Assembly: GCA_963768705.1 (NCBI GenBank)
Contig: CAVYJE010000027.1
Span: 7,828-71,827 of the forward strand
From: an uncultured Chloroflexia bacterium
GTDB taxonomy: Bacteria > Chloroflexota > Dehalococcoidia > DSTF01 > WHTK01
Direction: 5' to 3'
DNA length: 64,000 bases
Positions 6,686 to 64,000 of this stretch are shown in pieces. The notes under the pieces were generated by a model. The model worked only from the letters and a program-made list of their open reading frames with translations. It had not been told where the DNA came from and did not search any database. Position 1 is the stretch's first letter. Every line of letters begins with the position of its first letter. The translations under genes were made by a program, and so were the position numbers.

Positions 6686-6689
6686 GCAG

Positions 6690-6730
6690 ATTGTCAGTTC
6701 TCAGTCGGTACTTCTTGGTTTTCTAGTTCT
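6690..6730. repeat. degenerate heptamer tandem repeat
   Basis: ttgtcag-ttctcag-...-ttcttgg-ttttcta-gttct, between convergent genes. Confidence 0.55.
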
Positions 6731-6751
6731 CCTCGACGCCGCCCGCCACCG

Positions 6752-7448
6752 CTACGAGCTTGGCTTCGTGATGACGCTCGAAAGCCACTGGTTCACCGGG
6801 CTCAAAGCCTGGAAGTGCCCGAAGCAGTAGTCGACGAAGCCATGGCTGACGACTTCGTCCGGAATCGGCGCTTCGAGGTTGGCGTTCAGGCCCTCGAAGC
6901 GCAGGTAGCGGGCGCGCGGGTGGTTGGCGTCGTAGCCTCTCGGCACCGTCTTGCGGCTCTCGCCACCGACGATGTACGGCCCGGCGCTGGTGATGGCCGC
7001 GATGGTCTCTTCCAGCGCCCTGCCCAGCGCTTCGTCCACCACGGCGTGACGGAACACCTCCAGGCCGGGCTTGCTGAAGCTGTGCATGCCGGCGCCCAGG
7101 ATCATCTCGTCCTGCAGGAGTCGCATGAAGTAGCCGGGCGACTCCCAACCTTTGCGTTCGCCCTGCCAGAACCACATGTCGATGTGGTTCTTGTACGGTG
7201 TCTTGTCTTTCGAGAAACGGACGTCGCGGTTGATGCGGAATAGCGACCCGTTGACCCGCGCCTCGAAGCGCACGTCGCCGGGCAGGGTCTGGAGCTTCGG
7301 TCCCAGCGCCTCGATGAAACGCCAGCGCCGGTTCCAGGTAGAACGCCTCGTAGCGCTTGCGGTTGGCCTCGAACCAGGGCTTCTCGTTGTTGGCGGTGAG
7401 CTCGGCGAGGAAGAGAAACGTCTCGTCCGGGAAGCCTTCGAAGGTCAT
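6752..7448 (-). CDS. DUF2461 family protein, frameshift near 7318
   Basis: FLAELTANNEKPWFEANRKRYE and SLFRINRDVRFSKDKTPYKNH. Confidence 0.88.
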
Positions 7449-7459
7449 GGGGTGCTCCG

Positions 7460-7524
7460 GTTCTTAGTTCTTAGTTCTCAGTTCTTAGTGGTCAGTGGTC
7501 AGTGGTCAGTGGTCAGTGGTCAGT
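7460..7524. repeat. heptamer tandem repeat (GTTCTTA)n-(GTGGTCA)n
   Basis: About 9 consecutive 7-bp units read directly. Confidence 0.9.
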
Positions 7525-7752: not shown

Positions 7753-9051
7753 TCAGCCTCCCACCTCATGCAGGCGGCGCTGGAGGTAGCGTTGCTCTAC
7801 CGGGTTGGCGCACAGCTCCAGGGCGCGCCGATACGCCGTCGCTGCGGCATCGGGGCGAGCGGCGCGACGCAGGAGGTCGGCTTTGGCGGCGTGGAGGAGG
7901 TAGTAGTCGTCCAGGGCGCCTTCGGCCTCGAGGCCTTCGATCAGACGCAGGCCGGCGTCCGGGCCCCAGGCCATGGCAGCGGCGGCGGCGCGGTTGAGCT
8001 CGACGACGGGGCTGGGCTGCAGGCGCAGGAGCTCGTTGTAGAGCGCGGCGATCTGGCGCCAATCGGTGTCTCCGGAGCGCAGCGGCTCCGCGTGCAGGGC
8101 GGCGATGGCGGCCTGGAGCTGGTACGGCCCGGCATGCCGCATGCGCAGTGCCCGCTGCACCAGCACCGTGCCCTCCTCGATGCGCCCTCGGTCCCACAGC
8201 GTCCGGTCCTGCTCCTCCAGCGTGCGCATCTCGCCCGAGGCGTCGGTGCGGGCATTGCGCCGGGAGTCGATGAGGAGAATGAGCGACAGCAGGCCCAGCA
8301 CTTCCGGCTCGTCGGGCATCAGGGTCGCCAGGAGGCGGCCAAGGCGGATGGCCTCGTCGCACAGCTCGGCGCGCAGGAGGGTCTCGCCGGTCGAGCCGAC
8401 GTAGCCTTCGTTGAAGATCAGGTAGAGCACGGCGAGGACGCCGTTGAGCCGATCCGGCAGGGCGTGCTCTTCGGGTACCTGGTAGGGGATGCGGGCGTCG
8501 CGGATCTTGCCCCTGGCGCGGGTGAGGCGCTTCGCCATCGTCTCCTGGTTGACGAGGAAGGCGCGCGCGATCTCGGGCGTCTCCAGCCCGGCGACGGTGC
8601 GCAGGGTCAGCGCCACCTGCGATTCGAGGGCGAGCGCCGGGTGGCAGCAGGTGAAGATCAGGCGCAGACGGTCGTCTTGCAGCACGTGGTCCTCCGCCTC
8701 CTCTGGTACCGAGCCCTGTTCGGCCTGCTCCTGCAGCAACAGCGACTTGAGCTGCTCTTGCTTGCGCGCGAGGTTCTGACCGCGTCGCAACTGGTCGATG
8801 GCCTTGCGGCGGGCCGTCGTGATGATCCAGGCATCGGGGCGCTGCGGCACGCCATCGAGGGGCCAGCGTTCGAGCGCGGCGATCAGCGCCTCCTGGAAGG
8901 CGTCCTCGGCGAGCTGGAAGTCGCCTCCGCAGGCGCCGATCAGGGTCGCCACGATGCGGGTACCGTGTTCGGCAGCGACGGCCTCCACCGCGCGACGAGC
9001 CGTCTGCCCGTCGCGTGGTGGAGCACCCCTGAGCTCGCTCGAGGGGTTCAT
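7753..9051 (-). CDS. ECF RNA polymerase sigma factor with C-terminal TPR/DUF6596 extension (YciI-associated type)
   Basis: [67 protein letters not shown]. Start uncertain (9051 or 9156). Confidence 0.88.
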
Positions 9052-9092
9052 CCTGAGCCTGTCGGAGGGACCGCCTGCTGCACGATCGAGTG

Positions 9093-9441
9093 CTAGCCCA
9101 TGCTGTCGCCGAAGTCGACCACGGGGCGCACTTCGACGTGGCCGGTCGGCGCCCACGGGATCATCGCGGCGAGCTTGATCGCGACGTCAAGGTTCTCGCA
9201 ATCGAAGATGTAGTAGCCGCCGAGCTGCTCTTTGGTGTCTGAAAAGGGGCCATCGGTCGTGATCGTCTTGCCGTCGCGCACAGTGACGACGGTGGCGGTG
9301 CTGGACGGGATGCAACGCCTCACCGGAATCCTGGGTGGCGATCTTGGCGGCGTCCTCGCCGAACTTGATCCACGGCGCCATCGCGTCGGGCGTCATGTCC
9401 ATGGGCTCTTCTTCGTGGAACAACATCAGCATGTACTTCAT
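9093..9441 (-). CDS. YciI/DGPF family protein, frameshift near 9305
   Basis: MKYMLML...GEALHP, then [21 protein letters not shown]...VEVRPV; directly upstream of the ECF sigma gene. Confidence 0.9.
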
Positions 9442-9566
9442 GGGAGCTTGCGTCCTTTCGTCTACGGTGCAGGCCCGTACCTGCGTCCGATATTAGACGA
9501 ACGCGAGGGGCGCGAAAGGACAGGACTCTACAAGGAATCGTGAAATCTGCGGCGGCAGCGGCTGAG

Positions 9567-9785
9567 CTACAGGAGCTCTTTCTTCTTCACGGCCGTGACG
9601 ATGCTCAGGAGCTTCTCGACCAACACGACGTCGCCCTCGGACGGCGATGGGTAGACGACGTCATGGGCGAGACGCACCTCGTGGACCAGGTCGGGCGTAT
9701 CGGCGTAGGAGAGGAACATCTGGTAGTAGACGACGCCGTGAAGCTCGTAGGGGTTCAGTTTGCGGATGATCGCTTCTTGCGGCAT
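9567..9785 (-). CDS. small hypothetical protein downstream of rex
   Basis: 72-aa ORF with genome-typical codon usage and GGAGG upstream. Confidence 0.65.
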   Translation of the reverse strand: MPQEAIIRKLNPYELHGVVYYQMFLSYADTPDLVHEVRLAHDVVYPSPSEGDVVLVEKLLSIVTAVKKKELL

Positions 9786-9835
9786 ATGCGTGCCCTCCCG
9801 GTGACGGATGGATGCGATGCGAACTACTAAGAAGC

Positions 9836-10474
9836 CTAGCTCGACTGAGCAGCCGATGTCTTGAGATAGAAGGTCATGCTCTGGAGGGCGAGCACCGGGT
9901 CGATGTTCTTCACCTCGACCGTGTCGGGCACGGAGACGGAGGTTGGGGCGTAGTTGAGGATAGCGCGAATGCCGCCCGCCACCAGGACGTTCATGATCGA
10001 CGCGGCGGCCTCGGGCGGCACGGCGACGATGCCGATGTCAATCTGGCGCGCGACGAGGTAATCCTTGAGCCCATCCGTGTTGTGGATGGCCACGCCGCCG
10101 ATCTCCTGACCGACGATGGCGGGGTCGCTGTCGAAGGCATCGATGATGATAAAGCCCTGAGGATGGAAGCCGTCGTAGGTCAGGATCGCCTGTCCGAGGT
10201 GACCGACGCCCACAAGGATCATCGACCACTGGCGGTCCAGGCCGAGAATCTGACGTAGTTCCTGGGCGAGGCGCTGCACGTTGTAGCCGCGTCCCTGCTT
10301 GCCAAAGCGCCCGAAGTAGCTGAGGTCCTTGCGTATCTGGGCCGGCGTCACTCCCAGCACCTCGCCGAGCTCCTGGGAGCTAACGACATCGCGGCCTCGA
10401 GACTCGAGATCTGTGAGGGCGCGGGCGTATACGGGGAGTCTGTCGATAACGACTGCCGGTATCTCGATCGGCAC
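9836..10474 (-). CDS. rex: redox-sensing transcriptional repressor Rex
   Basis: IPAVVIDRLPVY, SSQELG, QIRKDLSYFGRFGKQGRGY, GVGHLG, AILNYAP. Confidence 0.96.
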   Translation of the reverse strand: MPIEIPAVVIDRLPVYARALTDLESRGRDVVSSQELGEVLGVTPAQIRKDLSYFGRFGKQGRGYNVQRLAQELRQILGLDRQWSMILVGVGHLGQAILTYDGFHPQGFIIIDAFDSDPAIVGQEIGGVAIHNTDGLKDYLVARQIDIGIVAVPPEAAASIMNVLVAGGIRAILNYAPTSVSVPDTVEVKNIDPVLALQSMTFYLKTSAAQSS

Positions 10475-16182: not shown

Positions 16183-16839
16183 CTAGGCCGGAGCGAGCTG
16201 GCGGTCGCGAGCCTTGAGGCCTGCGACAACCCAATCCGCCGCCGTGGCCATCTCGATCTCGCTGCCGTTGATCGTCAGGTCGTAGGCGCCGGAGCCGAGC
16301 CAATCCATGCCGTAGGCGCACTTGAAGAACTTGGTTCGCCGGCAGTCGTCGTCAGATAGGAGTTGAGTGGCTTCCGCCAACGAAAGGGACTCGCTCCTGG
16401 CGACTCGCTGAGCACGCACATCGCGGGCGCCGTGGACGAGCACCTTGAAGACGCCGGGCGTGTCACGCAGGATCGCCTGGCCGGCGTGGCCGACGATGAC
16501 GCAACTCCCTTCGTCTGCCAGGTTGCGCACGACCTCTTCGATCAGGGCGCGGTAGTCCGCGGACGACCGCATGGTCAGAACGCTCCCGCCAATCGGTGAC
16601 ATCAGAAAGCCATCGGAGGCAACTGCCGTGGTCGTGAGGTGCTCCACCATACGCTCGACAAGGCTGGGCCAGCGTTCGGCCCCAGCGACCGTCTCCGGAG
16701 AGACGCCGCTCAATTCGGCTGCGCGCGAGATCACTTCGCGGTCGTAGAAGCGCAGCCCCAGCCGGGTCGCGACTTCCTGGGCGATTTCGTGGCCACCGGA
16801 GCCAATCTGGGCGGAAAAGGTAACAACATCGCGGGTCAT
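16183..16839 (-). CDS. cytidylate kinase-like family protein (Cytidylate_kin2 type)
   Basis: VVTFSAQIGSGGHEIA, LRFYDRE, CVIVGHAGQAIL, YDLTIN; GGAGG upstream of ATG 16839. Confidence 0.85.
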   Translation of the reverse strand: MTRDVVTFSAQIGSGGHEIAQEVATRLGLRFYDREVISRAAELSGVSPETVAGAERWPSLVERMVEHLTTTAVASDGFLMSPIGGSVLTMRSSADYRALIEEVVRNLADEGSCVIVGHAGQAILRDTPGVFKVLVHGARDVRAQRVARSESLSLAEATQLLSDDDCRRTKFFKCAYGMDWLGSGAYDLTINGSEIEMATAADWVVAGLKARDRQLAPA

Positions 16840-16904
16840 GAGCCAATCCTCCATATCCTGCTGGAGGAGGGGGTCCGGTGGCAGTGAGGCGTTCCGGCCG
16901 CTCG

Positions 16905-16940
16905 AAAACAAAAACAGCCGGAGGACGTCCTCCGGCTGTT
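16905..16940 (-). terminator. intrinsic terminator, expression platform of the riboswitch
   Basis: Minus strand aacagccggagg-acgt-cctccggctgtt followed by tttgtttt. Confidence 0.85.
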
Positions 16941-16954
16941 AACCGAAAACCCAT

Positions 16955-17082
16955 CCTCTTTCAGTGGCCTACGAGGTTAGCTGTCGGGTTAGGGCTGAAA
17001 GAGATCTGCTGCCCCGTCCTCTTGCGAGAACTACACCCCGGGAATTGGTTCCCCCGCTCCTTCCGAAGAAGGACTCGGCCTT
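16955..17082 (-). ncRNA. cyclic di-AMP (ydaO/yuaA) riboswitch
   Basis: Minus strand GCCGAGUCC...GGAGCGGGGGAACC...GGGGUG...GCCCUAACCCGACAGCUAACCUCGUAGGC...GAAAGAGG, matching the ydaO-yuaA hallmark segments in order. Confidence 0.92.
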
Positions 17083-17160
17083 ATAACGCCATAAGAGTAG
17101 CCGATACGCCATCACAAGTCCATCCGGCCGCGTACGTGCTTTCGCACGCCGGACGCATGA

Positions 17161-21508: not shown

Positions 21509-21726
21509 CATGCGCGCGAATCAGGGCACCTCACCGGTTGGGGTAGAGGGAACTTGCTACGGGTTCCCTCGGGCGTCCCTCAAGTGGGCGTCCCTCAAGC
21601 TGACGCGCACCTGATTCGAGCGGTAGGCGACACGTATCCCTCGCCCTGACAGGGAAAGGTTGGCCGTTGGCCGGGTGAGGGTAAGCAGCGGCTCAAACGC
21701 TCATCTGTAGACCGAAACGCTGTCAG

Positions 21727-21759
21727 CCCTCACCTCCCCTCTCCCAAGGGGCGAGGGGA
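21727..21759. repeat. REP family C (CCCTCACCC...CTCTCCC-N3-GGGAGAGGG) copy
   Basis: Similar to 27074-27108, 36201-36235, 39209-39243, 42919-42959 and 46688-46727. Confidence 0.75.
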
Positions 21760-21885
21760 CTGGCTGTACCGAGTTCGAACATTCGAGGGCAATTCGGAGT
21801 CGTATGTAAAGGCAGTACGGGACTTGTTGCGCTCACGCGCTACTATTACCCTCACCCTAACGTTACGTCGAAAGAGGTCTGGAGC

Positions 21886-23270
21886 ATGTTGACCAAGGAA
21901 GACAACGAGATTCTGACCCAGGTTGGGCCGGGGACGATGATGGGGAACCTGCTGCGGCGCTACTGGACGCCGGCGCTGCTCTCCAGCGAGGTGCCTGAGC
22001 CCGATAGCCCGCCCGTGCGTGTACGGATCCTGGGCGAGGACCTGGTGGCGTTCCGGGACACGGAGGGTCGCGTCGGGTTGTTCAAGCAGGCGTGTCCGCA
22101 CCGCGGCGCTTCGATGTTCTTCGGGCGCAACGAGGAGGCGGGGCTGCGCTGCGTCTATCACGGCTGGAAGTTCGACGTGAACGGCGAGTGCGTCGACATG
22201 CCGTCGGAGCCGGCCGAGAGCAACTTCAAGAACAAGGTACGCATCGCCGCCTACCCGACGCACGAGTCCGGCGGGCATCGTCTGGGCCTACTTCGGGCCG
22301 CCGGAGAAGATGACCGGCTTCCGCGACTTCGGCTCCGATGCGGTGCCGCGCGAGAAGTGGTTCGCGATCAAGATCATCGGCTACTGCAACTGGGTGCAGC
22401 GCATGGAGGGCAACCTGGACACCTCCCACATCTCGTGGCTGCATCAGTTCCGGGGCGCGCACGATTACCCGGACGACGGCACGGACGTCGGCCGGCGGCT
22501 ACCCGAGCTTCGACATGTCGATGAAGATCTGGGCGCACGACCGCCACCCCGAGCTCGAGGTCGAGGAGGAGTGGTACGGCTACAAATACGCCGGCATCCG
22601 CCAGACGCCCAACGGCAACACGCACGTGCGGATCACGGCCTGGGCGATCCCGTACACGTCGGTCGTGGCGAACATCCCGTACGTGGGCGGCGGCGGCCTG
22701 TGCGTGCCAATCGACGATACGAGCAACTACTTCTTCTTCTGGACGAAGGACCCGAGCGAGGCCGACCGCATGGCGCTGCGACTGTCCGGCGTCGAGGGCA
22801 AAGGCCTGTTCGACAACACGCCGTACACGAACCGCGGCGGCGGCCGTAACCTGCTGCGCAACATCACGACGCAGCGGCAGTGGCGGCCCGACAACGACTA
22901 CCAGGTCGACCGCGACTACGCGAACTCGCCCTTCTACTCCGGCGTCTCCGACTTCGGCAGCCAGGATCTCATGGTGACGGAGTCGCCCGGCGAGATCTGG
23001 GACCGCTCGCAGGAGCACCTGGGCACGACCGACAAATCGATCATCACGATGCGCAAGATCCTCCTGAAGGCGGCGAAGGACTACGCCAACGGCATCGAGC
23101 CGCCAGCGCTGGACCCGAGCCTGCCGTACACGGAGATCCGTGGCGCCGAGAAGGTGCTGGAACACGGCGAGGACTGGCGACGCCTCGGCACGCCCGCGGA
23201 CCCGCTGCGCCAGCGCATCGAGGGCGAGCTTGCCGCCGTCGAGGTGCCCGTGGAGGGCAGCGGGGGGTAA
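21886..23270 (+). CDS. Rieske non-heme iron oxygenase (phthalate 4,5-dioxygenase/LigXa-like), frameshifts near 22275 and 22490
   Basis: VGPGTMMGNLLRRYW, CPHRGAS..GRNEEAGLRCVYHGWKFD, EGNLDTSHISWLH, QDLMVTES, EHLGTTD. Confidence 0.92.
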
Positions 23271-27834: not shown

Positions 27835-28592
27835 TTAGGTGGACTTCTCCTCGCCCGGGTTATTCGGCTCGTCTTCGACGTCATCGTCGCGCCGCAGGTG
27901 TTCGGGCAGCTCCGGAGGCTCCGGGCTGGGGCCGCGACCGCGACGCCACCATGCGATTCGACCATGTCGGCATCGGGCTCGGTCGGGGGGCGGGTCGGCG
28001 ACACGGCCGGACGGGTGGTGCGACGCGTGGCAGGGCTGCCGCCTCGGTGCAGGCGTAGCTCGCGGTAGTGGAGCTTGGCGGTCGGCGGGCGCAGGAGGGC
28101 TACGTGCACGCGGTCCGTGAGCACCTCGGTGGCAGCGTGACAGGCTTCGTCCGTGACGGTCGCCAGGTTGGCCTCGGGGTCGACCTGGAGGTCGAGGGCG
28201 ACGAGGACGCCCTTGCGCTTCGACTTGACGCTGGCGCGCACCTCGGCGACGTGCGGCACCTGCACGACGGCCTCTTCGATGCGCTGGCTGATCGCCGCGG
28301 CGGAGAGGGTCGCGGTGCCGGAAGCGAGGTCGGTGACCTGCACGGCGGGGCCGCGACGGGGGATGAGCTCGATGAGGAGGACGATGGTGGCGACGAGGCC
28401 GACGAAGGCGCTGATCGTGGTCAGCAGGGCCTTTTCGAGGTCGCCGTCATGGTCATCGACCCACTGGGCGGCGTCGCCGAGCCAGTTCACGCTGCGGTTA
28501 GGGATGGTCCAGGTCAGGGAGATGATCCCAACCGCGGCAACCACCAGCAACACACAGAGGACAATGAGGACGATTCGGTTGAACGTGTTCAC
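27835..28592 (-). CDS. alkaline shock response membrane anchor AmaP / Asp23-like protein, frameshift near the 3' end
   Basis: MNTFNRIVL, two TM helices, Asp23-like alpha/beta domain. Confidence 0.7.
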
Positions 28593-29927
28593 GCCATGAC
28601 CTCCCCGATGAGACCGTCATCACTAAGCCCCGCGATCCGCACAGCTGTCAGCCGGTTAGCCAGATTGGCGTTTGAACGGGCACGCACGCGTACGTAGGTG
28701 TCCGTCAGGCCCTCCCAGGTATCGCCGTCATGTCGAGTCTCCCACAACACGGAGGTCGTCGTACCGGCGTATCGCCGGCGATAGGCCTTCGACATGCCCG
28801 AGGCGAGGTCGATGAGGCGATGCACGCGCTGCTTCTTAATGTCGTCGGGCACCTGACCGGGCAGCTTGTAAGCCACGGTGCCGCTGCGTTGCGAGTAGGG
28901 GAAGACATGGATGCCCGCGAAGGCCATCTCCTCGCAGAAGGCGTAGCACTCGTCGAACTCGTCGTCGGTCTCGCCCGGGAAGCCGGCGATCACGTCGGTG
29001 GTGATCGCGACGTCCGGGACGACGTCACGCAGGCGGTGTACGGCGTTTCGGTACTCGTCCTGGGTGTAGCGGCGTCGCATGCGCTGTAGCACGCCGGCGC
29101 TGCCGGACTGGAGGGCGAGGTGGTAGTGGCGGCACAGACGCGGGTTGTCCCAAAGGGCGATGAGGTCGTCGTCGAGGTCCTGGGGCTGCACGGAGGACAT
29201 GCGAATGCGGGGTATCGAGGTCTCGGCGAGGAGCGCCTTGCATGAGGTCGTACAGGCGCACGCCGATGTCGGAGCCGTAGTGCCCGAGCTGGGTGCCGGT
29301 GATCACGATCTCCCGTACGCCCTCGGCCTCGCGCTTCTGGGCCTCTTCGACCACCCAGGCAACGGTCTTCGAGCGCTCACGGCCACGGGTCTTGGGGATG
29401 ATGCAGAAGGCGCAGACGTCGTTGCAGCCTTCCTGAGCGGCGATGAAGGCGCGGGTGCGGTAGACCCCTCCCCCCGGCCCCCTCCCCGCTGGCGGAGAGG
29501 GGGAGAGCGAGCGTGAACTACTGTGCTCCCTCTGCCCTTGGGAGTAGGTAGGGGTGAGGACAGGCCCGCCGCGAAGCTCGATGAGCTTGTCGGCGAGGGC
29601 AAGCTGGTCCGGCTGGCGGTAGACGAGGTCGGCGGCGAGAGCGTCGAGCTTGTCCGGCGGCGCCGTCTCCAGGAGACAGCCTGTGAGGGCGACCGTGGCG
29701 TTGGGCGCGATGCGACGGGCCAGGCGCATGAGGTGTCGCGACTTATGGTCGGCCTTGTGGGTGACGGAGCAGGTGTTGACGATAACGGCGTCGGCCTCGG
29801 TTGCGCGGTCGACCACGTCCCAGCCGGCATCGCGCAGGCGACGCGCCATCACCTCGGAATCGGCGATGTTGAGCTTGCAGCCGAGGGTAAGGATGGCGGC
29901 GGTGGTCGGATGGGGGGACTCTGACAT
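28589..29927 (-). CDS. mtaB: tRNA t6A37 methylthiotransferase (radical SAM + TRAM), frameshift near 29235
   Basis: TLGCKLN, VNTCSVT, QEGCNDVCAFCIIP, LQSGS, TTDVIAGFPGET, HVFPYSQRSGT. Confidence 0.92.
29462..29560. repeat. inverted pair of REP family C inside mtaB, in frame
   Basis: 29462-29503 is nearly identical to intergenic 42919-42959; 29526-29560 is a reverse copy resembling 21727-21759. Confidence 0.82.
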
Positions 29928-30080
29928 AAGGACGCCTACAAGGGCCATCATAGGCGACAGTGGTCAGGTGTCAAACGGCAGCGTAGCGGCCGCGAGCTGC
30001 AAGCTTCAAGACTGGAGCTACACAGCAGCACGCCACGCCCCAGCAGCATCAGCTCGTGGCTTACGGCTTACCGCTTGGAG

Positions 30081-31094
<1,014 letters not shown>

Positions 31095-31107
31095 TCAAGC
31101 CGGAAGG

Positions 31108-32353
31108 CTATCCGATCTCACGAGAGAGCATCTGCTGCTCCCGAATCGAGCTAAACAGGACGACGCCCAGCGCGAGGAACAGCCCGGCGATGATCACGAA
31201 GCCGAGGTGAAACGAGATCGCGGCGAACAGCGCCGCGCCGGCGGGACCGACGCCGAACGAGAGCGCCTGGGCCGTGGCGGCGATGCCAAAGCCGGTGCCA
31301 CGCCTCGACCGCGTGACGCTGCTGGCAATGTGGGTGTTGATCGCCGGCACGAGGGAGGAGATCACGAGGGCGATCATGAGGAAGCCGGCGATGTACATCG
31401 GCACGGAGTCCGTGATGGCCAGGAGCAGGAAGCCGGCGGCGCCGAAGGCACAGGCGGCGCCGAAAGCCCGCCCGCACCCGGCCCGGCCTGAACACGATCG
31501 GCGCCAGAAACAGGACGCCGAGGGCGCTGACGAGGCCGCCGAGGCTGAAGGTGATGCCGGAGACGCCCGCCACATCGGCGCCGTCCTTGATCGCCTTGAG
31601 GGCGATCGGCGTCGAGAGGCGGATGAGCTCGTTCATGGCGTAGACGCAGAACAGGGCGCCGACGCCGAGCGCGAACTGCGGCGACCACCGGAAGGGCTCG
31701 ATTGCGGTCTTCTCGCCGGCGGCCGTCCGGCGCGGCGCCACCCGGTCGCGCGGCACCCAGAGCAGGACCATCGTCGCCGTGATCAAGGGGACGACCGAGG
31801 CAACGACGATCGTGGTGCGAAAGCTGAACAGCAGCGCGAGCAGGGCGCCCAGGGCGGGGCCTGTGGTGGTGCCGAGGTACTGGGCGCCCGTGAGGGTGCT
31901 GAGACTGCGATTGAGGCGATGGTCCGGCACGAGAACGCTCACCAACGACACGGACGCAGGGATGAAGCCCGAAAACAGGCCCTGGCAGGCCGTGGCCACG
32001 GCGAGGTGCCACGGCGCCTGGGCTACGGCGGCGAACATGAAGGTGAGACTGGCGAGGTAGAGGGCGCGCAAGAGCATGAGCTTGCGACCCCAGCGATCGG
32101 ACAGGACGCCCCAGATCGCGCTGGAGGCGAGGCGGGTCACGCCCTGCATCGTGATCGCGAGGGCAACCCAGGCTACGGCGTCGGCATCGCTTTTGGCGCC
32201 GAGCTCGAGGGCGTACAGGGGCATGAAGGGGTACCAGACGTTGAACGACATCGCCGTCGCACCGGCGGCGGCGGCGATGAACAGGGTGGAGCGCCGGCCT
32301 TCGTCGCCGGCAGCGGGCGCGGTGGTTAAGTCTGGAGGCTCCTCGGAGGCCAT
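31108..32353 (-). CDS. MFS transporter (MdtG/DHA1-like), frameshift near 31470
   Basis: [29 protein letters not shown]; about 12 TM segments. Confidence 0.9.
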
Positions 32354-40281: not shown

Positions 40282-40379
40282 CGAGCCCAGTATATGGCTA
40301 AGCCTGTGCTATAGTTGGGCACCGGCGATGGACAACGACGGCTACTCCCCCACTTGGATTTAGAACAGGGCTGGTACAC

Positions 40380-41616
40380 ATGACAAGGGTCGTCGTCACC
40401 GGCCTTGGCGCCGTCACGCCTCTAGGAAATGACCTCGCAACCACCTGGAAAAGCCTGCTGGCCGGCCAGTCCGGCATCGGCCCGATCACGCTGTTCGACG
40501 CCTCCGCTTACGAGTCGACGATCGCGGGCGAGGTCAAGGATTTCGCGCCGGAGCGCTACTTTCCCGCCAAAGAGGCGCGCTACATGGACCGCTACGTCCA
40601 GTTCGCCTGCGCGGCCGCCCTGGAAGCACTGCAGGACGCCGCCATCGAGATCGGCGATGGGCTGGGCCCTTCCACCGGCGTCGTTATCGGCTCCGGCGCC
40701 GGCGGCTCACGTCCTGCTGGAAGAGGGCTTCCACACACTCCAGAAGAAGGGCCCGCGCCGCATCAGCCCCTTCTTCCTGACCAACTTCTTGCCGGACGCC
40801 TCCACCGGCCACGTCGCTATCCTCACGGGCGCGATGGGTCCGAACATGGCGGTCGTCTCGGCCTGCGCCACGGGCGCGGGGTCTATCGGCGAGGCCGCCG
40901 AGATCATCCGGCGCGGCGATGCCGACATGATGATCGCCGGCGGCGCCGAAGCTCCCCTGACGCCGATGCTATACGCCTCGTTCAACGCCCTGCGCGCGGT
41001 CGCCAGCCCGGGCGACGACCCCGCGAGCGCCTGCAAGCCCTTCGACATGCGGCGCGACGGCTTCGTGGTGGCCGAAGGCGCGGCGATGATGATCCTCGAG
41101 AGCATGGAGCACGCGCAGAAGCGCGGCGCCCGCATCTACGCCGAGCTTGCGGGCTACGGCTGCGCCAACGACGCCTTCGACATGGTGGCGTCCGAGGAGA
41201 CGGGCCGCGGCGCGATCCTGGCGATGGAGATGGCCCTGCGGAAGTCGAAGCTGGAGCCAGACCGCATCGGTTACGTCAATGCGCACGGCACCGGCACGCC
41301 GATGAACGACCGCGTGGAGACGCTGGCGATCAAGCGCGTGTTCGGCGAGCACGCCTACCGGCTGGCGGTGAGCAGCACCAAATCGATGACAGGGCACATG
41401 ATGGGCGCGGCCGGCGCCATCGAGGCGGTGTTCAGCGTACTTGCCCTGCACGACCAGGTGCTGCCGCCGACGATGCACTACGAGGTGCCGGACCCGGACT
41501 GCGACCTCGACTACGTGCCGAACGAGGCACGCCCAGCGCAGGACCTCGACGCGACCATGAGCACGTCGATCGGGCTCGGCGGGCACAACGTCGCGCTGCT
41601 GTTCCAGCGGGCCTGA
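40380..41616 (+). CDS. fabF: beta-ketoacyl-ACP synthase II, frameshift near 40705
   Basis: RVVVTGLGAVTPLG, SACATG, KPFD.RRDGFV, NAHGTGT, STKSMTGH, GLGGHN. Confidence 0.95.
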
Positions 41617-41709
41617 CGGCCCTACCTCACCAGCACCGCCCCGGGCAAAGAGGCAAACGGGCATGTTGCCGCGCAGGCGATTCGGGCCGCCCGAGGCATC
41701 GCGGTAGCT

Positions 41710-41860
41710 GCAGTTGCGGGATCGATCCCGCAGTGTTCTTCCCACCGTCCGGTTCTGGTTCGTACTTATGCCACCCTGTCAACACCCGTGAGGCACACGT
41801 GTATGGCGCCCAAGCGCGGGATTGGCGTTTCGACCACTGCGGGATGAATCCCGCAGCTAC
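41710..41860. repeat. REPIN-like inverted pair of REP family A
   Basis: gcagttgcgggatcgatcccgcagtg (41710-41735) ... cactgcgggatgaatcccgcagctac (41835-41860). Confidence 0.85.
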
Positions 41861-41895
41861 CACCGGCTCTAGCGAGCAAGGCGATCGACTCCGAC

Positions 41896-42346
41896 CTACT
41901 TGCTGCCAACCGAGATGTTGGGTACGAACGTGAGGGCGGTGCCGTTGACGTTCACGGTGTATTCGGCGCCGGTCACGAGGTCTGTGCCGAGGCCGATGGC
42001 TAGCGGGTAAGTGCCGTAGATATCGCTGCAGACGCGGCCGTCCACCGGGACGTAGACGTAGACCTCGATGTCGATAGTGCGGTTATTGCGGTTGATCTCG
42101 TAGCCGGCCGGGCTCGGCGCAACCGCTGGGCAGGCCCGCCGTGCCGACGAGACGGTACTCGGTGCCGGTGGTGGGCGTTTCGATGGCGGCTTCGTCGATG
42201 GGGGCGAGGACTCGCTGCATGCCTTCGTGGTCTTGCGCCGGCGAGTCCCCGTCTTCGTTGCCGCCGAAAGCACCGGCTGCGAAGGCGCCGACCGCCAGCA
42301 TGACTACAAGAACGGCGCCGAGGCCGATAAGTGCGCGTCTGAGCAT
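41896..42346 (-). CDS. secreted hypothetical protein, frameshift near 42110
   Basis: Signal peptide; GLPSGC...C....YPLAIGLG....YTVNVNG. Confidence 0.65.
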
Positions 42347-43047: not shown

Positions 43048-44367
43048 GTGCTGAGCAAGCAGGACAACGAGACGCTAACGCAGGTGGGACCGGGGACGCT
43101 GATGGGCGACCTGATGCGGCAGTACTGGATCCCCGCGTTGAAGTCGGACGAGCTGCCGGCGCCGGACAGCCCGCCGCAGCGTCTGCGTCTACTGGGCGAG
43201 GACCTCATCGGCTTCCGCGTGACCTCGGGCGCCGTCGGGATCATCCAGAACGCCTGCCCGCATCGCGGCGCCTCGATGTTCTTCGGGCGCAACGAGGAGG
43301 AAGGGCTGCGCTGCGTCTATCACGGCTGGAAGTTCGACGTGACGGGTGCGTGCGTCGACATGCCGTCCGAGCCGGCCGAGAGCAACTTCAAGACCAAGGT
43401 GCGCACGCGCGCTTACCCCACGCAGGAGCGCCACGGCGTCGTCTGGGTGTACATGGGGCCGCGCGAGGTGCCGCCGCCGCTGCCAGGTATCGAGCCCAAC
43501 CTGGAGGAAGGCGCGACGGTGCAGAAGTTCCTGCGCGACTGCTCCTGGCTGCAGGGCTTCGAGGGCGACCTGGACACGACGCACATCAGCTTCCTCCACT
43601 TCGGCGCCTTCAAGGCAGAGGACATGGAGCCGAAGTCGATGGACTACTACACGATGGCGCGCAAGGACCCGAAGATGATGGTGGTCGAGCGGCCGTGGGG
43701 CGCCACGTACGGCTCCTACCGGCCGGCCGAGGAGGACACGACCTACTGGCGCGTGGCCCAGTACCTCTACCCGTTCTACTCGATGCCGCCGGTGGGCACC
43801 CTGGGCAATCGCAAGGCGATCCTGGCGATCGTGCCGGTGGACGACACGCACATGATGCGGTGGCAGATCAGCATCCCGAACCCGTGGGCGCAGGCCGGCG
43901 CCATCCGCCCCGCCTACGAGCTGCACGAGCAGTACGGCTACCAGCCGGAGACATCGGGGTTCCTGGGCAAGTGGCGCATGGCGCAGAACCGCCACAACGA
44001 CTACCTGCTGGACCGCGAGTTCCAGAAGAACGGCTCCTACACGGGCATCAAGGGCATCGGCATCCAGGACGAGGCGGTGACGGAGAGCATGGGCGAGATC
44101 GTCGACCGCACTCAGGAGCACCTGGGCACCTCAGACCTCATGGTGATCCGGCTGCGCCAGATGCTGCTGCGCAACGCCCGCCGCCTGCGCGAGCACGGCG
44201 AGGTACCGCCCGCGGTCGACAACCCGGAGGTCTACGCGGTGCGCTCCGGCGGCATCGTCCTGCCCAACGGGATCAACGGCGTCGACGCGACGCTGGACGT
44301 GCAGCAGGGCCGCGTACCCCAGGCAGCCTTCGAGCAGGCGATACCGACGCCGAACTTCGGGGTCTGA
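43048..44367 (+). CDS. Rieske non-heme iron oxygenase (phthalate 4,5-dioxygenase/LigXa-like), intact
   Basis: CPHRGAS...CVYHGW, EGDLDTTHISFLH, QDEAVTESMG, EHLGTSD. Confidence 0.94.
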   Translation: MLSKQDNETLTQVGPGTLMGDLMRQYWIPALKSDELPAPDSPPQRLRLLGEDLIGFRVTSGAVGIIQNACPHRGASMFFGRNEEEGLRCVYHGWKFDVTGACVDMPSEPAESNFKTKVRTRAYPTQERHGVVWVYMGPREVPPPLPGIEPNLEEGATVQKFLRDCSWLQGFEGDLDTTHISFLHFGAFKAEDMEPKSMDYYTMARKDPKMMVVERPWGATYGSYRPAEEDTTYWRVAQYLYPFYSMPPVGTLGNRKAILAIVPVDDTHMMRWQISIPNPWAQAGAIRPAYELHEQYGYQPETSGFLGKWRMAQNRHNDYLLDREFQKNGSYTGIKGIGIQDEAVTESMGEIVDRTQEHLGTSDLMVIRLRQMLLRNARRLREHGEVPPAVDNPEVYAVRSGGIVLPNGINGVDATLDVQQGRVPQAAFEQAIPTPNFGV

Positions 44368-48098: not shown

Positions 48099-48940
48099 TC
48101 AGGCCGTCTCCGGCCAGTTGAGGACCTTTGCCGCAGTCTTGCCGAGGACCCACTCCTTGTCTTCGGCGGTGAGGAAGTCGAGGCCTTCCTGGAAGTGGCG
48201 CAGGCATTCGGGGTAGGTGCTGGTGAGGCGGGTGTAGTCGGCGCCCCAGAGCATGCGCTGGGCACCGAAGGCCTCGTAGATGCGCTTGAGGTAGGGGTAG
48301 ATGTCGCGGTACGGGTAGGGGTCGGCGGAGAAGCAGGGGGCGGAGCTCGTCTTCACCGAGACGTTGTCGAATTGGCGAGAGCAAGGAGGCCGTCGATGCT
48401 GGCGAAGGCGGCGTCGCCCTTGGCGGCGAGGTTGGCAGCCATGTGGTCGACGACGAGCGTGAGGCCGGGGTGGCGCTCGGCGACGGGCAGGAGCTTGTGG
48501 GCTTCGTCCGGCACGAGGCACATGACCGGGATGCCGTTGCGCTCGCAGCCGGCCCAGAAGGGCTCGATGTCGGCGGCGTTGGAGTCGAGCCAGGTGTCGT
48601 AGGGCGGCACGCGGAAGGTCATGCGGATGCCGATCATGCCCGGCTGCTTGGTCCAGGCCGCGAGGGCCTCCTGGGCGTCGGGGCGCATGGGGTCGAAGCG
48701 GCCCATGACGGCGAAGCGGCCGGGGTAGGCCGCACAGGCTTCGAGGGCGGTCGAGTTGTCCTCGCCGATCCAGGTCGGCGGCACGATGGCAGCGCGGTCG
48801 ACCCCGGCCGCGTCCATCTGGGCGATCATCTCGCTGGCCTCGAAACCGTTCGGGAGCTGGGGCTGGTTACGAAGGGGCTTCGGCCAGGGCCGGCCCGGCC
48901 GGTCGACTTCCCAGATGTGTACCTGTGCGTCCGTGATCAA
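48099..48940 (-). CDS. amidohydrolase_2 family protein, frameshift near 48365
   Basis: DAQVHIW, MDAAGVDRA, VVDHM, FGAQRMLWGADY. Confidence 0.88.
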
Positions 48941-49150
48941 AGCGCTTCTCTCCTGCTACTTGCCTGAGTCAAACTCTTCGCTTAGCCGCTGCGCATCGCT
49001 ATCGGTCTGCTCCGCTAGCGTTGGGAGAATGTGGCTGGAGGGACACCCCCCAGAGCCCCCGCGCATGGGCTTCGCCCCCGCTGCCCCCGTATGGTGACTT
49101 CACGGTCCATTGCCGGTCCCACGTGGGAGCACAGACGAAGACATCGTCTG

Positions 49151-53446: not shown

Positions 53447-53660
53447 GATTCGACCAGGGATACGCGGCGCCCGCCTGGAGCCTGCCTGGTGATCCCACGC
53501 GGCCTCTGACTCACTGAACGCTTCGTTCTGACCGCCGAGTTGGCAGCGCTCCCCAAGCGTCCGATCTGTCCCCGGTGCACTGGCTTGGCCCCGCGGGAGG
53601 CCGGTGCTCGACGCGCGGGCTTAGAATCCCTGGAGCGGACTCGGGATGAAAGGGGACAAC

Positions 53661-54540
53661 ATGACTGAGCTCATACCTTCCGGCGAAATCCTCGGCGCCA
53701 GGGTCGAGGGCATCGACTTGTCGAAGCCGCTCTCCGACGGCGACTTCGAACTGCTGCTCAACGCCTTCGCGGACTACGGCGTGCTGTGCTTCCCGAATCA
53801 GGACCTGGATCCCGAGGCGCACAAGGCGTTCGGCAGCCGGTTCGGCTCGCTCGAGATCAACGTCGCATCGGGCCCTTTGCTCAGTGCCGGACCATCCGGA
53901 GCTCATGTTCCTCTCGAACATCGTCGAGAACGGCCGTCCCCTCGGGCTCAACGACGCGGGACAGGCCTGGCACACCGACATGTCTTACTCGGAGACAATC
54001 GCCTTCCTCAACGTGCTGTATGCCCTCGAAGTGCCGCAGCGGGACGGCGTACCCCTGGGCGACACGCTGTTCATCAACCTGCGCGCTGCCTACGATGACC
54101 TGCCGGAGGGCATCAAGAGCCAGATCGAGGGCCGAACGGCGACGCACGACTTTGCCAAGCTGTGGGACGAAATGCGCGAGCGGCCCGGCAGCATCCGCAA
54201 GCCTCTGACGGCGGAACAACGGGCGCAGAAGCCGCCGGTCTCCCATCCCCTCGTCCTCACCCACCCCGTGAACGGGCGCAAGAGCCTCTACTGCAACCCG
54301 GGGTACACGGTGAGCATCGACGGCATGCCGCAGTCGGAGAGCGAGGAGCTGCTGGCGTTTCTGTTCGAACACCAGATGAAGCCGCAGTTCCAATACGCGC
54401 ACCACTGGGCGAAGGGCGACGTCCTGGTCTGGGACAACCTCTGGACGATCCACAACGCGGTAGGCGACTACGGGCCGGACGAGCACAGGCTGATGCGTCG
54501 CTGCCAGGTGATGGCAGACAAGGTGTTCGCGAAGGCCTGA
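53661..54540 (+). CDS. TauD/TfdA alpha-ketoglutarate-dependent dioxygenase, frameshift near 53880
   Basis: LGARVEGIDL, WHTDMSY, HPLVLTHP, WAKGDVLVWDNLWTIH, R.MRR. Confidence 0.93.
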
Positions 54541-60950: not shown

Positions 60951-61947
60951 TTAGCGCTCTGAGGTGATCTCAAACTCGTCGATGACTTCGCCACGGATGT
61001 TCTTGTAGTAGCCATGAGCCGACCGCGGGTCGCCGCCAACGTTGAAGTCGATGAAGAGGCTCCCGTAGGTTGCGCCCTGGTCTTCCGTATAGATGCTGGC
61101 CCACTCGCCCTTGCAGCCGTAGGGCGGATCGACGGGCCTGCAGCGCTCCTGGTCCCGAATGCTCTTGCCGCCAAGTCCGGAAACGAAAGCGAAGGTGGCG
61201 CCATCTGCGACTCTCAGGCTGTCCGTGTCTGGCCAGGCTTCGTCGACGGTCTGGTGCTCCATGTCAGTCAGCGTCCTGGTCCGCGAGTACGAGTGCTCGT
61301 GAGCCGTGGCAACAATGGCGCCGAGCTGACGACAGAATCTCGTAGGCCCCCCAGCCCACCTCGTCGCTCTTGCCCCCCGCCTGCATCGCTCTTTGGTCCT
61401 TGTGCCAGGCGCACACCCGCCAGATCGAGTCGTCCTCCTCCAGGGCGTTCGTGAGGAAGTCCTCGTGCCCGGTGCCCAGGGTTCCGACTCCGGAGAGCAC
61501 GATGAACAACCCTCGGAACTTGCACGCGGCATTGACGCCGAAATCGCCTGTGCAGCTGACTTCGGGAGAGGTACCGAGACGCCTTTTGAAGCCTGCCTGA
61601 TACGCCGGCCAATCGCCCAGATCGTGGTTGCCGACGACGGCGAGCACGGGCAAGTCTGGTCCAAGCACGCGATCCAGCAAAGCCTCCCACCGGTCGGGCG
61701 CCTCTTCATAATCAAAGTCGCCGAGGACGACAAGGAGGTCCGCCCCTTCGCCGACCACGAGCTGCAGCACGGCCTCGGTATTGTCATTGAGGCCCATGTC
61801 CCCAACAAAGGCCACGCGCAGACCCTCTGCCGTGGACTGCGTGCCGGGCCGGCCGACTGGGATCGGACGCTCGTCATGGCAAGACGCCGCGAGCAGAAGC
61901 AGGGGAAGGACAAGGACGATCAGTCCCCAAGAGCGTAGCCGCCTCAT
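60951..61947 (-). CDS. secreted/lipoprotein metallophosphoesterase, frameshift near 61335
   Basis: AFVGD, LGDFDY, GNHD, AWH, HEHSYSRT, FVSGLGG. Confidence 0.85.
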
Positions 61948-62243
61948 GCACCCAAGACTACATCGGGGCACAGGAACGTTGCTGCAGAAGCACCACTGCA
62001 ACGGGGAGAATTAGGGAAACCACGCACCACCATCTATTTATAGTCGACAGTTCCATCACGGTTCTAGCCGGCCTCCAGAACAGTGGAACGACGTCCGGGC
62101 GCCCGGCCATGAGCCGTCACGATGGGGGACATTAGGGAAACTACTGATACATCGGCCCCCAGCAGGCCGGCATCACCGCCGGCTTCACGTCCCAGTGCGG
62201 CTACGTAGAGGTCCTGCCCGGCACGCAAAGCAGCATGCTGTCT

Positions 62244-62272
62244 TTGACAGGCCTGCGTGCTGCTGTTAAGTT
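62244..62272 (+). promoter_or_regulatory. sigma70-type promoter of the rdhA-like gene
   Basis: TTGACA - 17 bp - TAAGTT; inverted repeat gcacgca/tgcgtgc (62221-62260) spans the -35 box; GGAGG at 62284. Confidence 0.6.
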
Positions 62273-62297
62273 TGCGGCCATTCGGAGGACAGTGCAG

Positions 62298-63609
62298 ATG
62301 GCAATCGATCAGGCTCCCGCCGAAACGACAACTGCAAACACATCCGGAAGCGAGACGGACTTCCCCACGCCCTACCTCGGCCGTACCGTCCGCATTGTCG
62401 GACCCGTCGAGAACGTCGATCCGAAGACGCTGCCGCATGCGAAGGCTGGGCGGGGCGAACTTGGCAAGGCCGTATTCAACTGGCGCAACAACACAATCTC
62501 GGCTGACCCACTGGCTCGGGTTGCCTATGACACCCACGCGGCCGACCCGAACAACCACATCAACACGCTGCTTCGCAAAGGCAAGCCCGGCGCCGTCAAC
62601 CCGCGCCGGTTGCCCGTCAACGACGCGAAGGCGATGTCGCGTCATATCAAGAAGGCGGCGCGTGATTTCGGCGCGGATGTCGTTGGTATCGGTAAGACGC
62701 ACCCGGCCTTTCTGTACGCGGGCAACTACCTCGACAGTGGCACGGGCGTTGGTGACTCGCTCTCTGATACGCCCGAGGCGCTCGCGAAACGGCTGCCTCA
62801 TGTCATCGTGGCCGTCGCAGCCTGGGACTATGACCTGATCCAGGCACATCGACACCACATCGGGGATGCCGCATACGACTTCACGCTGCTCAAGACGAGC
62901 ATGACCGTCAGCGCGCTGGAGGGTTACATTCACGAGATGGGCTACACGGCAATCCGGAATGCCGTGAACCCGCAGGCCGCCGCGCTGGCTGCGGGTGTCG
63001 GCGAGCTTGGCCGCAACGGCATGATCATCACGGAGAAGTTCGGGCCGCGCGTGCACATGTACGACGCCATCCTCACGGACCTACCGCTGGTCGCCGACAA
63101 GCCGATCGACATTGGCGTCGAGGACTTCTGCAAGGTGTGCCGCAAGTGCGCCGTGACGTGCCCAACGAACAGCATCTCATTCGAAGGCAAGCAGGTCTAC
63201 AACGGCGTCGAGAAGTACAAGATCAACTGGGAGACCTGCTATAAGCTCCGGCCTCTGGTGGCCGACCACTGGGGCCAGTGTCTGACCTGCGTCACCGTCT
63301 GCCCCTACACGAAACCAAACAAGTGGTGGCGAACCCTGGCGATTCAGTCGCTGAAGCGCACGCCCCTTCGGTTGCGGTCCCTCGTCGCCCGCGGGCTGAA
63401 ATTGCTGGACGACCGCGTCTGGGGTGTGATCCCGAACAAACGGGTACGCTGGCTGGGACTACGACACGGGAATCAAGCCCGGCGAAAAGGCCTGCACGAT
63501 TGCCGGCTGCACCGCTGACCATGCAGGCGCTTCGTTCGTGCCAACTGAGGACATCGGTTTCTACATACCGCTCAAGGAAAACACAAACCGCTTCGTGAAG
63601 CGCGGCTAG
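62298..63609 (+). CDS. reductive dehalogenase-like cobalamin/2x[4Fe-4S] protein without Tat signal, frameshift near 63458
   Basis: HIKKAARDFGADVVGI, AGVGELGRNGMIITEKFGPRV, LTDLPLVADKPIDIGVEDFCKVCRKCAVTCP, C...CLTCVTVCPY. Confidence 0.85.
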
Positions 63610-63615
63610 CCTCTC

Positions 63616-64000
63616 ATGCTGAGTTCTCTCTGGTCTCGCATTCGCCGTCAATCGGATCCCTACGAGGACTTCTACCTCAACGCAGGCGTCGCAGACCCTC
63701 GAAACCTCATCGTGAACCGCATCCGGGAGGCGCCGGAAGGCAGCGTGTTCGCGGTCAAAGCCGAAACGCACACGCCGGAGGTGATGGCATCTCATATCAA
63801 GGAGTTGGGCCGCTTCTTCGGCGCGGACCTCACAATCATCGCCAGCACTGGGGGATTGGGAATCGAGACCCTCAAAGCGGACGAGTCAGCGGATGCCCTT
63901 CGCGGTCTTCTGCCTCTTTGAAGCCGACCACGACCCGCGCGAGGCCCCGGGCATCGGTGGCCATGTTGCGGCCCTCAAGGGCGCCTTCGCGACCTTCCAG
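63616..64000 (+). CDS. second RdhA-fold-like protein, truncated by the window edge, frameshift near 63900
   Basis: PEVMASHIKELGRFFGADL parallels AKAMSRHIKKAARDFGADV of the upstream gene; starts 6 bp after its stop. Confidence 0.65.

Follow-up and report, generated by a model that had tools for sequence, protein, structure and literature searches.

The 3′-terminal part of the analyzed DNA, a stretch of 64,000 nucleotides from an uncultured Chloroflexia bacterium (hereafter the window), carries two consecutive genes on the plus strand, called gene 1 and gene 2 in the following, whose products and their families are referred to as alpha and beta, respectively. Alpha resembles RdhA, the catalytic protein of reductive dehalogenation, and beta is a short protein related to the core of alpha. 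Gene 1 starts with the ATG at 62298, 8 nt downstream of the ribosome-binding site GGAGGA read from the sequence (62284-62289, +). Its RdhA-like part A (62298-63458, +) begins with an N-terminal segment, continues with a core of the corrinoid type and a 2x[4Fe-4S] domain and runs on in its own frame to a false stop at 63516-63518, so that the open reading frame (ORF) as written ends at 63518 after 406 amino acids (aa). Part B (63460-63609, +), which lies in the +1 frame and matches positions 394-444 of the gene 1 hidden Markov model (HMM) with 77.8 bits, codes for the C terminus, a conserved tail reading YDTGIKPGEKACTIAGCTADH...PLKENTNRFVKRG, and ends with the stop codon TAG (63607-63609). Between both parts, at 63458/63459, the window has one extra base compared to intact homologs. 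Read through this frame error gene 1 codes for about 436 aa, full-length homologs being about 440 aa long; these likewise begin with MA... and continue with ...RVRWLGYDTGVKPGE.ACTI.GCTADH...PLKENTNRFVKRG. The protein is 92% identical to the one encoded at the closest genome locus, L001.

Gene 2 follows directly, with matches to its own HMM at 63610-63918 (155.2 bits) and 63785-64000 (65.4 bits). Its ATG at 63616 is located 6 bp 3′ of the TAG of gene 1, exactly the distance given by the first-pass annotation, a model's reading of the sequence made without database searches, even though this TAG is reached only past the frameshift of gene 1. Part A of gene 2 (63616-63892, +; HMM positions 1-91) runs in its own frame to a false stop at 63919-63921, thereby ending the ORF as written at 63921 with 101 aa. 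The continuation MPFAVFCLFEADHDP... is found in a different frame from 63893 to the window end and forms part B, MPFAVFCLFEADHDPREAPGIGGHVAALKGAFATFQ (63893-64000, +; HMM positions 85-131, 65.4 bits), corresponding to the next segment of gene 2 homologs, LPFAVFCLF.A.HDPRDAPGIGG..AALKGAFATFQ. The frame change itself falls into a variable linker (63870-63893, +), where the exact base cannot be placed, and gene 2 is cut by the window end, with about 60 codons lying beyond position 64000. The pair, its motifs and the repeated segment described below are thus present as first annotated, while the two frameshifts had been read through without mention.

Both iron-sulfur motifs ascribed to gene 1 were found. 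The first one, CKVCRKCAVTCP (63129-63164, +), provides C278, C281, C284 and C288, and the second one (63237-63305, +) is composed of C314 (63237-63239) and CLTCVTVCP (63279-63305) with C328, C331 and C335; all eight cysteines are invariant in 40 sequences. The region of the second motif also contains R318. Further upstream, the HRHH motif (62847-62858, +), of which H184, R185 and H186 are invariant, directly precedes a helix with the invariant Y193, and HMM alignments to PceA and NpRdhA place this region at the position of the catalytic-Tyr helix of RdhAs. The motif CTIAGCTADH (63493-63522, +), located in the +1 frame, belongs to a C-terminal extension of about 90 aa that is specific to the family, with C399, C404 and H408 invariant in 40 aligned members. 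Its initial description as an extra motif holds true in comparison to classical RdhAs; within the family it is an invariant feature. The motif may represent a metal site.

The approximately 75 nt upstream of the gene 1 ATG (window 62225-62297; L001 7929-8000) show conservation in the comparison of the window with L001, interrupted by a gap of 1 nt, and probably constitute a non-coding leader or promoter. A simple scan of 61900-64000 revealed no sigma-70-like site, and the two terminator-like matches in this region, both on the minus strand, are at chance level.

Comparison with NCBIfam assigned gene 1 to the reductive dehalogenase (RDH) family TIGR02486 (147.7 bits, E 6.7e-43), in agreement with the cobalamin domain first proposed for it, whereas the score for QueG (TIGR00276) was 44.3 bits against a cut-off of 200. 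A profile built from 26 alpha members matched PceA with an E-value of 9.6e-36, NpRdhA with 6e-33, the RdhA of structure 8q4h with 1.8e-31 and QueG with 3e-11. The same order was obtained on the level of predicted structure: the AlphaFold2 (AF2) model of the L001 alpha ortholog (92% identical; predicted local distance difference test, pLDDT, 68; predicted template modeling score, pTM, 0.72) matched the fold of PceA with E 7.1e-17, 8q4h with 3.1e-16, NpRdhA with a TMq of 0.60-0.61 and QueG with 2e-7. With the HMM, profile and fold scores all far closer to RdhA, an identity of gene 1 as QueG was ruled out. A respiratory RdhA/RdhB type was likewise discarded, since searches for a Tat motif, a membrane segment and rdhB were all negative: none of 120 alpha family members, the window protein included, contains a [ST]RRxF Tat-like motif or a hydrophobic 19-mer, the same applies to all 52 beta proteins, and no rdhB-like small membrane ORF lies near gene 1 in the window. 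Small hydrophobic ORFs occur near alpha in just 12 of 80 sources and at inconsistent places, so that no consistent rdhB is apparent. These results bear out the lack of an RRxFxK signal and of an adjacent rdhB already noted for the window. A C-terminal PDOR-type reductase domain was not found in alpha either, for which Pfam reports Fer4 families only (Fer4_7 at E 1e-8). All comparisons of sequences and models considered, gene 1 is predicted to encode a cytoplasmic protein of the RdhA type and not QueG.

The gene 2 family has no Pfam or NCBIfam match, its members are annotated as "hypothetical protein" in the source records, and 28 of the 30 clusters nearest to gene 2 in the ESM Atlas have no common Pfam family. 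A homolog search with the first 101 aa as query and a size range of 178-2000 aa returned 52 beta proteins, all of them 181-207 aa long (about 190 aa for the family), without any conserved cysteine and ending in ...TDLPVA.D, exactly where the Fe-S domain of alpha starts. In accordance with what had been suspected from the fragment, gene 2 is therefore not a complete RdhA. Its relation to gene 1 first became visible through the segment HIKELGRFFGAD (63793-63828, +), a diverged repeat of the HIK..FGAD segment HIKKAARDFGAD of gene 1 (62643-62678, +). Since BLASTP of the gene 2 fragment against gene 1 gives an E-value of 2e-9 with 30% identity over 73 aa, this repeat reflects homology and not chance. 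Comparing the two families with hhalign yielded a probability of 99.7% (E 6.2e-27), with beta columns 12-204 aligned to alpha 76-286, the stretch ahead of the Fe-S domain. The AF2 model of beta (pLDDT 80.2) has its best match in NpRdhA (E 1.3e-6, TMq 0.59), followed by PceA and QueG and, weakly, by CblD (6x8z, E 2.3e-3) and MMACHC (3som, E 8.6e-3). Searched against 1.84 billion representatives, the beta profile produced 245 matches with E <= 1e-3, 96 of which reach 1e-10 and 26 reach 1e-30.

A maximum-likelihood tree of 73 chosen cores (18 alpha, 24 beta and 31 others, midpoint root) was calculated to place beta within the superfamily. The 31 other cores all score best as RDH. Alpha and beta each form a clade (each 100/99), and a further split (97/96) sets the two clades apart from 29 of the RDH-type cores, among them the fused two-core proteins. 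Because alpha and beta group apart from the other RdhA cores, beta appears, on the evidence of this tree, to have arisen from alpha's own lineage, in parallel to the duplication seen in NpRdhA. The idea that the pair is an evolutionary intermediate, which had been put forward together with the first description, does not agree with this topology, in which gene 2 is sister to the gene 1 family and not to the fused NpRdhA-like proteins.

No natural fusion of alpha and beta was present among the 52 beta matches (178-2000 aa) or among the best 150 of the 245 profile matches. Three long matches were considered as candidates and rejected: P0216 (603 aa) has two cores in the manner of NpRdhA, P0254 consists of two complete RdhAs in tandem and P0185 is a read-through of beta into a ferredoxin. 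The single chain of P0216 starts with a core lacking Fe-S motifs and ends with a complete RdhA, and the protein is found in the tree among the other RdhAs, outside the alpha and beta clades.

The alpha profile was used to collect 79 genome loci from Chloroflexota, Binatia, Rokuibacteriota/Methylomirabilota, Acidobacteriota-type, Eremiobacterota and Syntrophobacter-type metagenome-assembled genomes (MAGs). Beta is encoded directly downstream of alpha in 75 of these 79 loci, with a median projected gap of 19 nt (73 loci), and wherever both genes read through they are separate ORFs; at L001, for instance, the stop of alpha is followed after 3-6 bp by a new start for beta. Correcting the frames in the window would hence not be expected to fuse the two genes. 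The pairwise identity matrices of alpha and beta, calculated for the 62 loci with both genes at full length, correlate with r = 0.948, a value reached by 0 of 999 permutations, at mean identities of 0.68 for alpha and 0.59 for beta. As read from the sequences, this co-variation indicates joint inheritance and constraint on both genes and is not evidence of binding. One Dehalococcoidia genome (L002) carries two alpha-beta pairs side by side in divergent orientation, at 5452-7394 (-) and 7962-9920 (+).

Binding is predicted by structural modeling, the approach suggested along with the first description: the alpha-beta complex obtained a score of 0.89, the best of three controls 0.00. A score of 0.89 is reached by 116 of 157 solved complexes and by 2 of 215 mismatched pairs; these figures apply to the present case only approximately, since custom alignments were supplied. 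At least 95% of the contacts, of which there are 130-142, agree between runs, and the pLDDT of the partner is at least 86. In the model, alpha 71-125, 195-214 (a helix) and 385-387 face beta 12-68 and 114-138 (a helix), i.e., homologous surfaces of both proteins, and the interface covers alpha 46-90, a segment with pLDDT below 50 (disordered) when alpha is folded alone. According to this model, alpha and beta probably form a heterodimer, and together with the gene order and the co-variation this is in line with the split heterodimeric RdhA type postulated at the outset.

Two further genes recur next to the pair. In 59 of 78 loci, for example at L001 9890-10556 (frameshifted), L003 9936-10601, L011 6666-7325 and L017 9894-10508, the gene behind beta encodes a fusion of a ferredoxin (CxxCxxCxxxCP) with an HbpS-like/DUF336 domain (PF03928), and a stand-alone HbpS-like protein of about 132 aa is encoded ahead of alpha in 50 of 78; both HbpS-like genes are found in 39 of 78. 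Proteins of the HbpS family reportedly bind heme and HbpS itself also aquocobalamin (PMC4923194). The HbpS-like proteins might take part in electron delivery or corrinoid handling.

Taken together, we consider it fairly probable (roughly 0.65 for architecture and electron path together) that the pair constitutes a cytoplasmic two-subunit enzyme of the RdhA superfamily. The basis for this reading is homology, domain content, gene order, co-variation and the absent export and anchor signals. Alpha would contribute the corrinoid-type core, two [4Fe-4S] clusters and the tail with the invariant Cys-Cys-His motif, and beta is a paralogue of the alpha core that has lost the Fe-S domain. Packing on alpha through homologous surfaces (the N-terminal segments and a long central helix), beta would fill the position taken by a second protomer in the PceA homodimer or, in the monomeric NpRdhA, by the vestigial domain at the N terminus. 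Electrons would most likely be supplied by the ferredoxin domain of the ferredoxin/HbpS-like fusion encoded downstream in relatives and pass via the two clusters of alpha to the cobalt, where a cytoplasmic substrate would be reduced. Cobamide binding, the electron donor and the reaction are what we infer from this assembly.

Beta could also be envisaged as a cofactor-handling factor and not as a permanent subunit, such as a carrier of corrinoid or a chaperone for the loading or protection of alpha. In its logic this role would resemble that of CblD, a degenerate paralogue that works with the B12-processing protein CblC. The weak matches of the beta model to CblD and MMACHC would fit, as would the preserved G-x-G and FG.KVH..D...TDLP core motifs with many invariant His and Asp residues, a profile that agrees better with the functional core of NpRdhA (22.4 bits) than with its vestigial domain (5.3 bits), and the HbpS-like proteins, members of a family with reported corrinoid/heme binding, that flank the pair. 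However, the large pseudo-symmetric interface of the model, which orders the N-terminal segment of alpha, is what a stable partner would be expected to form, and the correlation of both families and their translational-coupling distances fit a stoichiometric subunit, so that such a handling role seems unlikely.

Several observations weigh against the proposed two-subunit dehalogenase-type enzyme. No experimental data were found on any member of the family. The structure predictor may have recognized two solved interfaces, that of the PceA homodimer and the intramolecular one of NpRdhA, and its model of the complex would in this case indicate likeness more than binding. Of the four loci without beta behind alpha, one contig ends too early, whereas three (L026, L071 and L079) have no adjacent beta. 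In the window itself the reading frames of gene 1 and gene 2 are both interrupted, and the ferredoxin gene expected behind them would lie past the window end. Beta keeps invariant polar residues (THTP, HD.R..GIGG, KVHVAD) as well as most core motifs of the superfamily, which, by their conservation, appear to exceed the needs of a mere scaffold. With respect to alpha, the TIGR02486 score is below the curated cut-off of 160.35 (a related protein, P0246, scores 160.6 bits), and PF13486 is not among the Pfam matches of gene 1 (E up to 1). The active site appears to differ as well. In HMM alignments, the catalytic Tyr of PceA (Y246) and NpRdhA (Y426) is matched to a variable column, which in the window is L197, and NpRdhA K488/PceA R305 aligns to the nearly invariant H253 of alpha; the names of these residues in PceA and NpRdhA were taken from PMC10463259. 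Given the alignment of K488/R305 to His and of the Tyr to a variable column, dehalogenation is not assured.

It is possible, if somewhat doubtful, that the two-subunit architecture is correct and that the enzyme is a cobamide/Fe-S reductase acting on a non-halogen substrate, comparable to QueG with its epoxide. The HRHH loop, Y193, H253 and the Cys-Cys-His tail would then form a different active site, in which only R552 of NpRdhA is retained, as the invariant R318 (HMM alignment), and in which the invariant Tyr lies behind the invariant H-R-H and four residues, or one helical turn, before L197 on the same helix. Besides the low RDH score and the missing PF13486 match, this possibility is favored by the occurrence of the family across phyla not known for organohalide use and by the neighborhood, which outside of the core module is variable and names no halogen pathway. 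On the other hand, every comparison of sequence and fold puts alpha far nearer to RdhAs than to QueG, a Tyr shifted by one helical turn could serve equally well, and the substrate ranges of uncharacterized RdhA clades are not known anyway.

Among the closest known systems are the catabolic RdhAs, monomeric enzymes in which, according to PMC10463259, a vestigial duplicate of the core mimics the dimer interface of PceA. Like alpha-beta, NpRdhA, BhbA and JtRdhA are cytoplasmic, lack a Tat signal and RdhB, combine a corrinoid-type core with two [4Fe-4S] motifs and contain a second core devoid of Fe-S motifs, which the same source regards as a mimic of the dimer interface (PMC10463259). NpRdhA in particular is the best fold match for beta, reaches a TMq of 0.60 with alpha and has its R552 aligned to R318. 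In contrast, its second core is the N-terminal domain of the same chain and not a separate protein of about 190 aa encoded downstream, and the second core of alpha-beta, which would stem from alpha's own lineage, is far better conserved. By HMM alignment, Y426 and K488 are not conserved in place in alpha, which has the Cys-Cys-His tail in addition. The self-sufficient catabolic subtype has a C-terminal PDOR reductase domain; alpha has none, and a ferredoxin/HbpS-like fusion is encoded alongside the pair.

Among the respiratory RdhAs (PceA of Sulfurospirillum multivorans; RDH complex 8q4h), PceA is the best profile match of alpha and shares its fold and Fe-S motifs. It is, however, a dimer of two identical cores, whereas the proposed partner of alpha is a shortened paralogue; the Tat signal, RdhB and membrane link of respiratory RdhAs are missing in alpha, and the Tyr and Arg of the PceA active site are, by HMM alignment, not conserved in place. 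QueG belongs to the same superfamily and is also a cytoplasmic protein with a cobalamin core and two [4Fe-4S] clusters, although its matches to alpha are much weaker, as detailed above. A pairing of similar logic is known from CblC-CblD, in which a B12-binding protein of nitroreductase-like fold is paired with a degenerate paralogue. This system is eukaryotic, has no Fe-S domain and serves another function, so that the likeness is restricted to fold and logic.

Alpha genes are already annotated as reductive dehalogenase (domain) proteins. The nearest published category is probably the "simplified cytosolic type" of RdhA-like proteins from Chloroflexota and Desulfobacterota, with an average of about 395 aa and no vestigial domain (Microbiome 2025, PMC12219181), judged by the description in the available portion of that paper; a separate core-like partner and a ferredoxin/HbpS-like neighbor are not mentioned in this portion. 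The part of the T7RdhA paper that was considered (PMC10008544) gave no link to the alpha-beta family, and in the corresponding part of a genome paper on Binatota the only dehalogenases named are of the hydrolytic or glutathione-dependent kind. A literature search did not find the alpha-beta pairing, or an RdhA with HbpS/DUF336 neighbors, described. The two-gene architecture with its ferredoxin/HbpS-like companion is therefore undescribed in the literature searched.

With both genes broken within 450 bp, and with a truncated form of 406 aa (P0001) in the public protein set, the pair could also be regarded as decaying pseudogenes of the source organism, both frameshifts being real mutations. This is considered quite improbable. 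The extra base of gene 1 is seen in the window as "ctgggactac" compared to "ctggg-ctac" in L001 (blastn, three-frame translation and homolog sequences), and gene 2 has a net change of -2 nt relative to L001 (blastn), within an alignment of both loci of 1781 columns at 84% nucleotide identity. Synonymous changes relative to L001 predominate before the break (119:30 synonymous to non-synonymous), and this excess persists behind the breaks, where the counts are 15:5 for the tail of gene 1 and 12:7 for part B of gene 2. In addition, broken frames are found window-wide. In a Pfam scan that covered 65 of 67 picked ORFs many matches were truncated, and 11 suspect genes were checked via 49 of 83 neighboring stop-to-stop ORFs. 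Seven of these 11, housekeeping genes included, are split across frames with complementary Pfam coordinates, whereas for the remaining four no complementary piece was found. The split genes code for a Rieske/LigXa oxygenase (21685-23267, three frames), a MiaB-like radical SAM enzyme (28592-29963), TsaD (pieces at profile positions 34-161 and 197-263 of 264), a ketoacyl synthase (KAS; 2-127 and 130-252 of 252), an Amidohydro_2 protein (two frames), a TauD protein (9-65 and 70-266 of 267) and a DUF2461 protein (two frames), and the stretches concerned are 6726-7463, 21685-23267, 28592-29963, 30084-31117, 40302-41930, 48102-48955 and 53625-54537. Similar splits are present in relatives from long-read MAGs (L002, L036, L041 and L074) and in the ferredoxin gene of L001. 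Since at least seven other genes of the window are split alike and the synonymous excess is kept after the breaks, indels of the assembly are, on these sequence comparisons, the most likely cause of the frame errors in both genes, although a real mutation of very recent date might also account for them. Programmed frameshifting was ruled out, as the homologs read straight through. The whole window is rich in single-base indels, like uncorrected long-read assemblies.

Apart from the HbpS-like genes, the surroundings of the pair vary; Amidohydro_2 proteins and NMT1-like binding proteins are encoded at 11 loci each, RidA-like proteins at 7 and others at fewer, and these further neighbors point to no halogen pathway or substrate. 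Neighbor genes were picked by G+C content at third codon positions (GC3), a procedure that missed some beta genes (57 loci compared to 75 by HMM). In the window, the nearest picked ORF 5′ of gene 1 encodes a metallophosphoesterase (61267-62001, minus strand). An Rfam search at gathering thresholds found no cobalamin riboswitch in the window or in L001, L003, L011, L014 and L017, the only riboswitch being one for c-di-AMP elsewhere. This element, a complete RF00379 (window 16951-17090, -; 84.6 bits, E 6.9e-18), is located directly 5′ of an ORF on the minus strand (16186-16911) whose product belongs to the cytidylate-kinase-like family PF13189. The window further contains LigXa-type Rieske oxygenases at 21685-23267 (frameshifted) and 43048-44364 (+) and a TauD-family dioxygenase at 53625-54537 (+), in keeping with the oxygenase-rich character noted in the first-pass annotation; none of them adjoins the pair.

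Going beyond the two subunits, one may speculate, albeit tentatively, that the HbpS-like protein, alpha, beta and the ferredoxin/HbpS-like fusion make up an undescribed four-part cytoplasmic corrinoid reductase system with a wide distribution over Chloroflexota, Binatia, Methylomirabilota/Rokubacteria, Acidobacteriota and lineages of the Desulfobacterota type. The HRHH loop, the shifted Tyr, the His at the Lys/Arg position and the Cys-Cys-His tail would form a remodeled active site for the reduction of a compound that differs from the known ortho-halophenols and possibly contains no halogen at all, and beta would be an active participant that holds a second corrinoid or completes the active site, and not a vestigial scaffold.

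The known RdhA architectures are respiratory homodimers and catabolic monomers with a dead copy of their own core. The locus described here suggests a third solution, in which a well-conserved paralogue of the core is encoded separately and probably forms a heterodimer with the catalytic protein, and the arrangement, found at 75 of 79 loci from many phyla of soil, groundwater and sediment, is not confined to one genome. Metagenome surveys count these genes as "reductive dehalogenase", with the partner being annotated just as hypothetical. If the proposed reading is true, gene 1 and gene 2 would have to be introduced together for heterologous expression of members of this clade, probably along with the ferredoxin/HbpS-like gene, and inferences on halogen cycling drawn from rdhA counts would need care for this clade because its active site appears to differ. 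The pair would then also represent an independent, parallel case of a paralogue replacing the partner in a homodimer.

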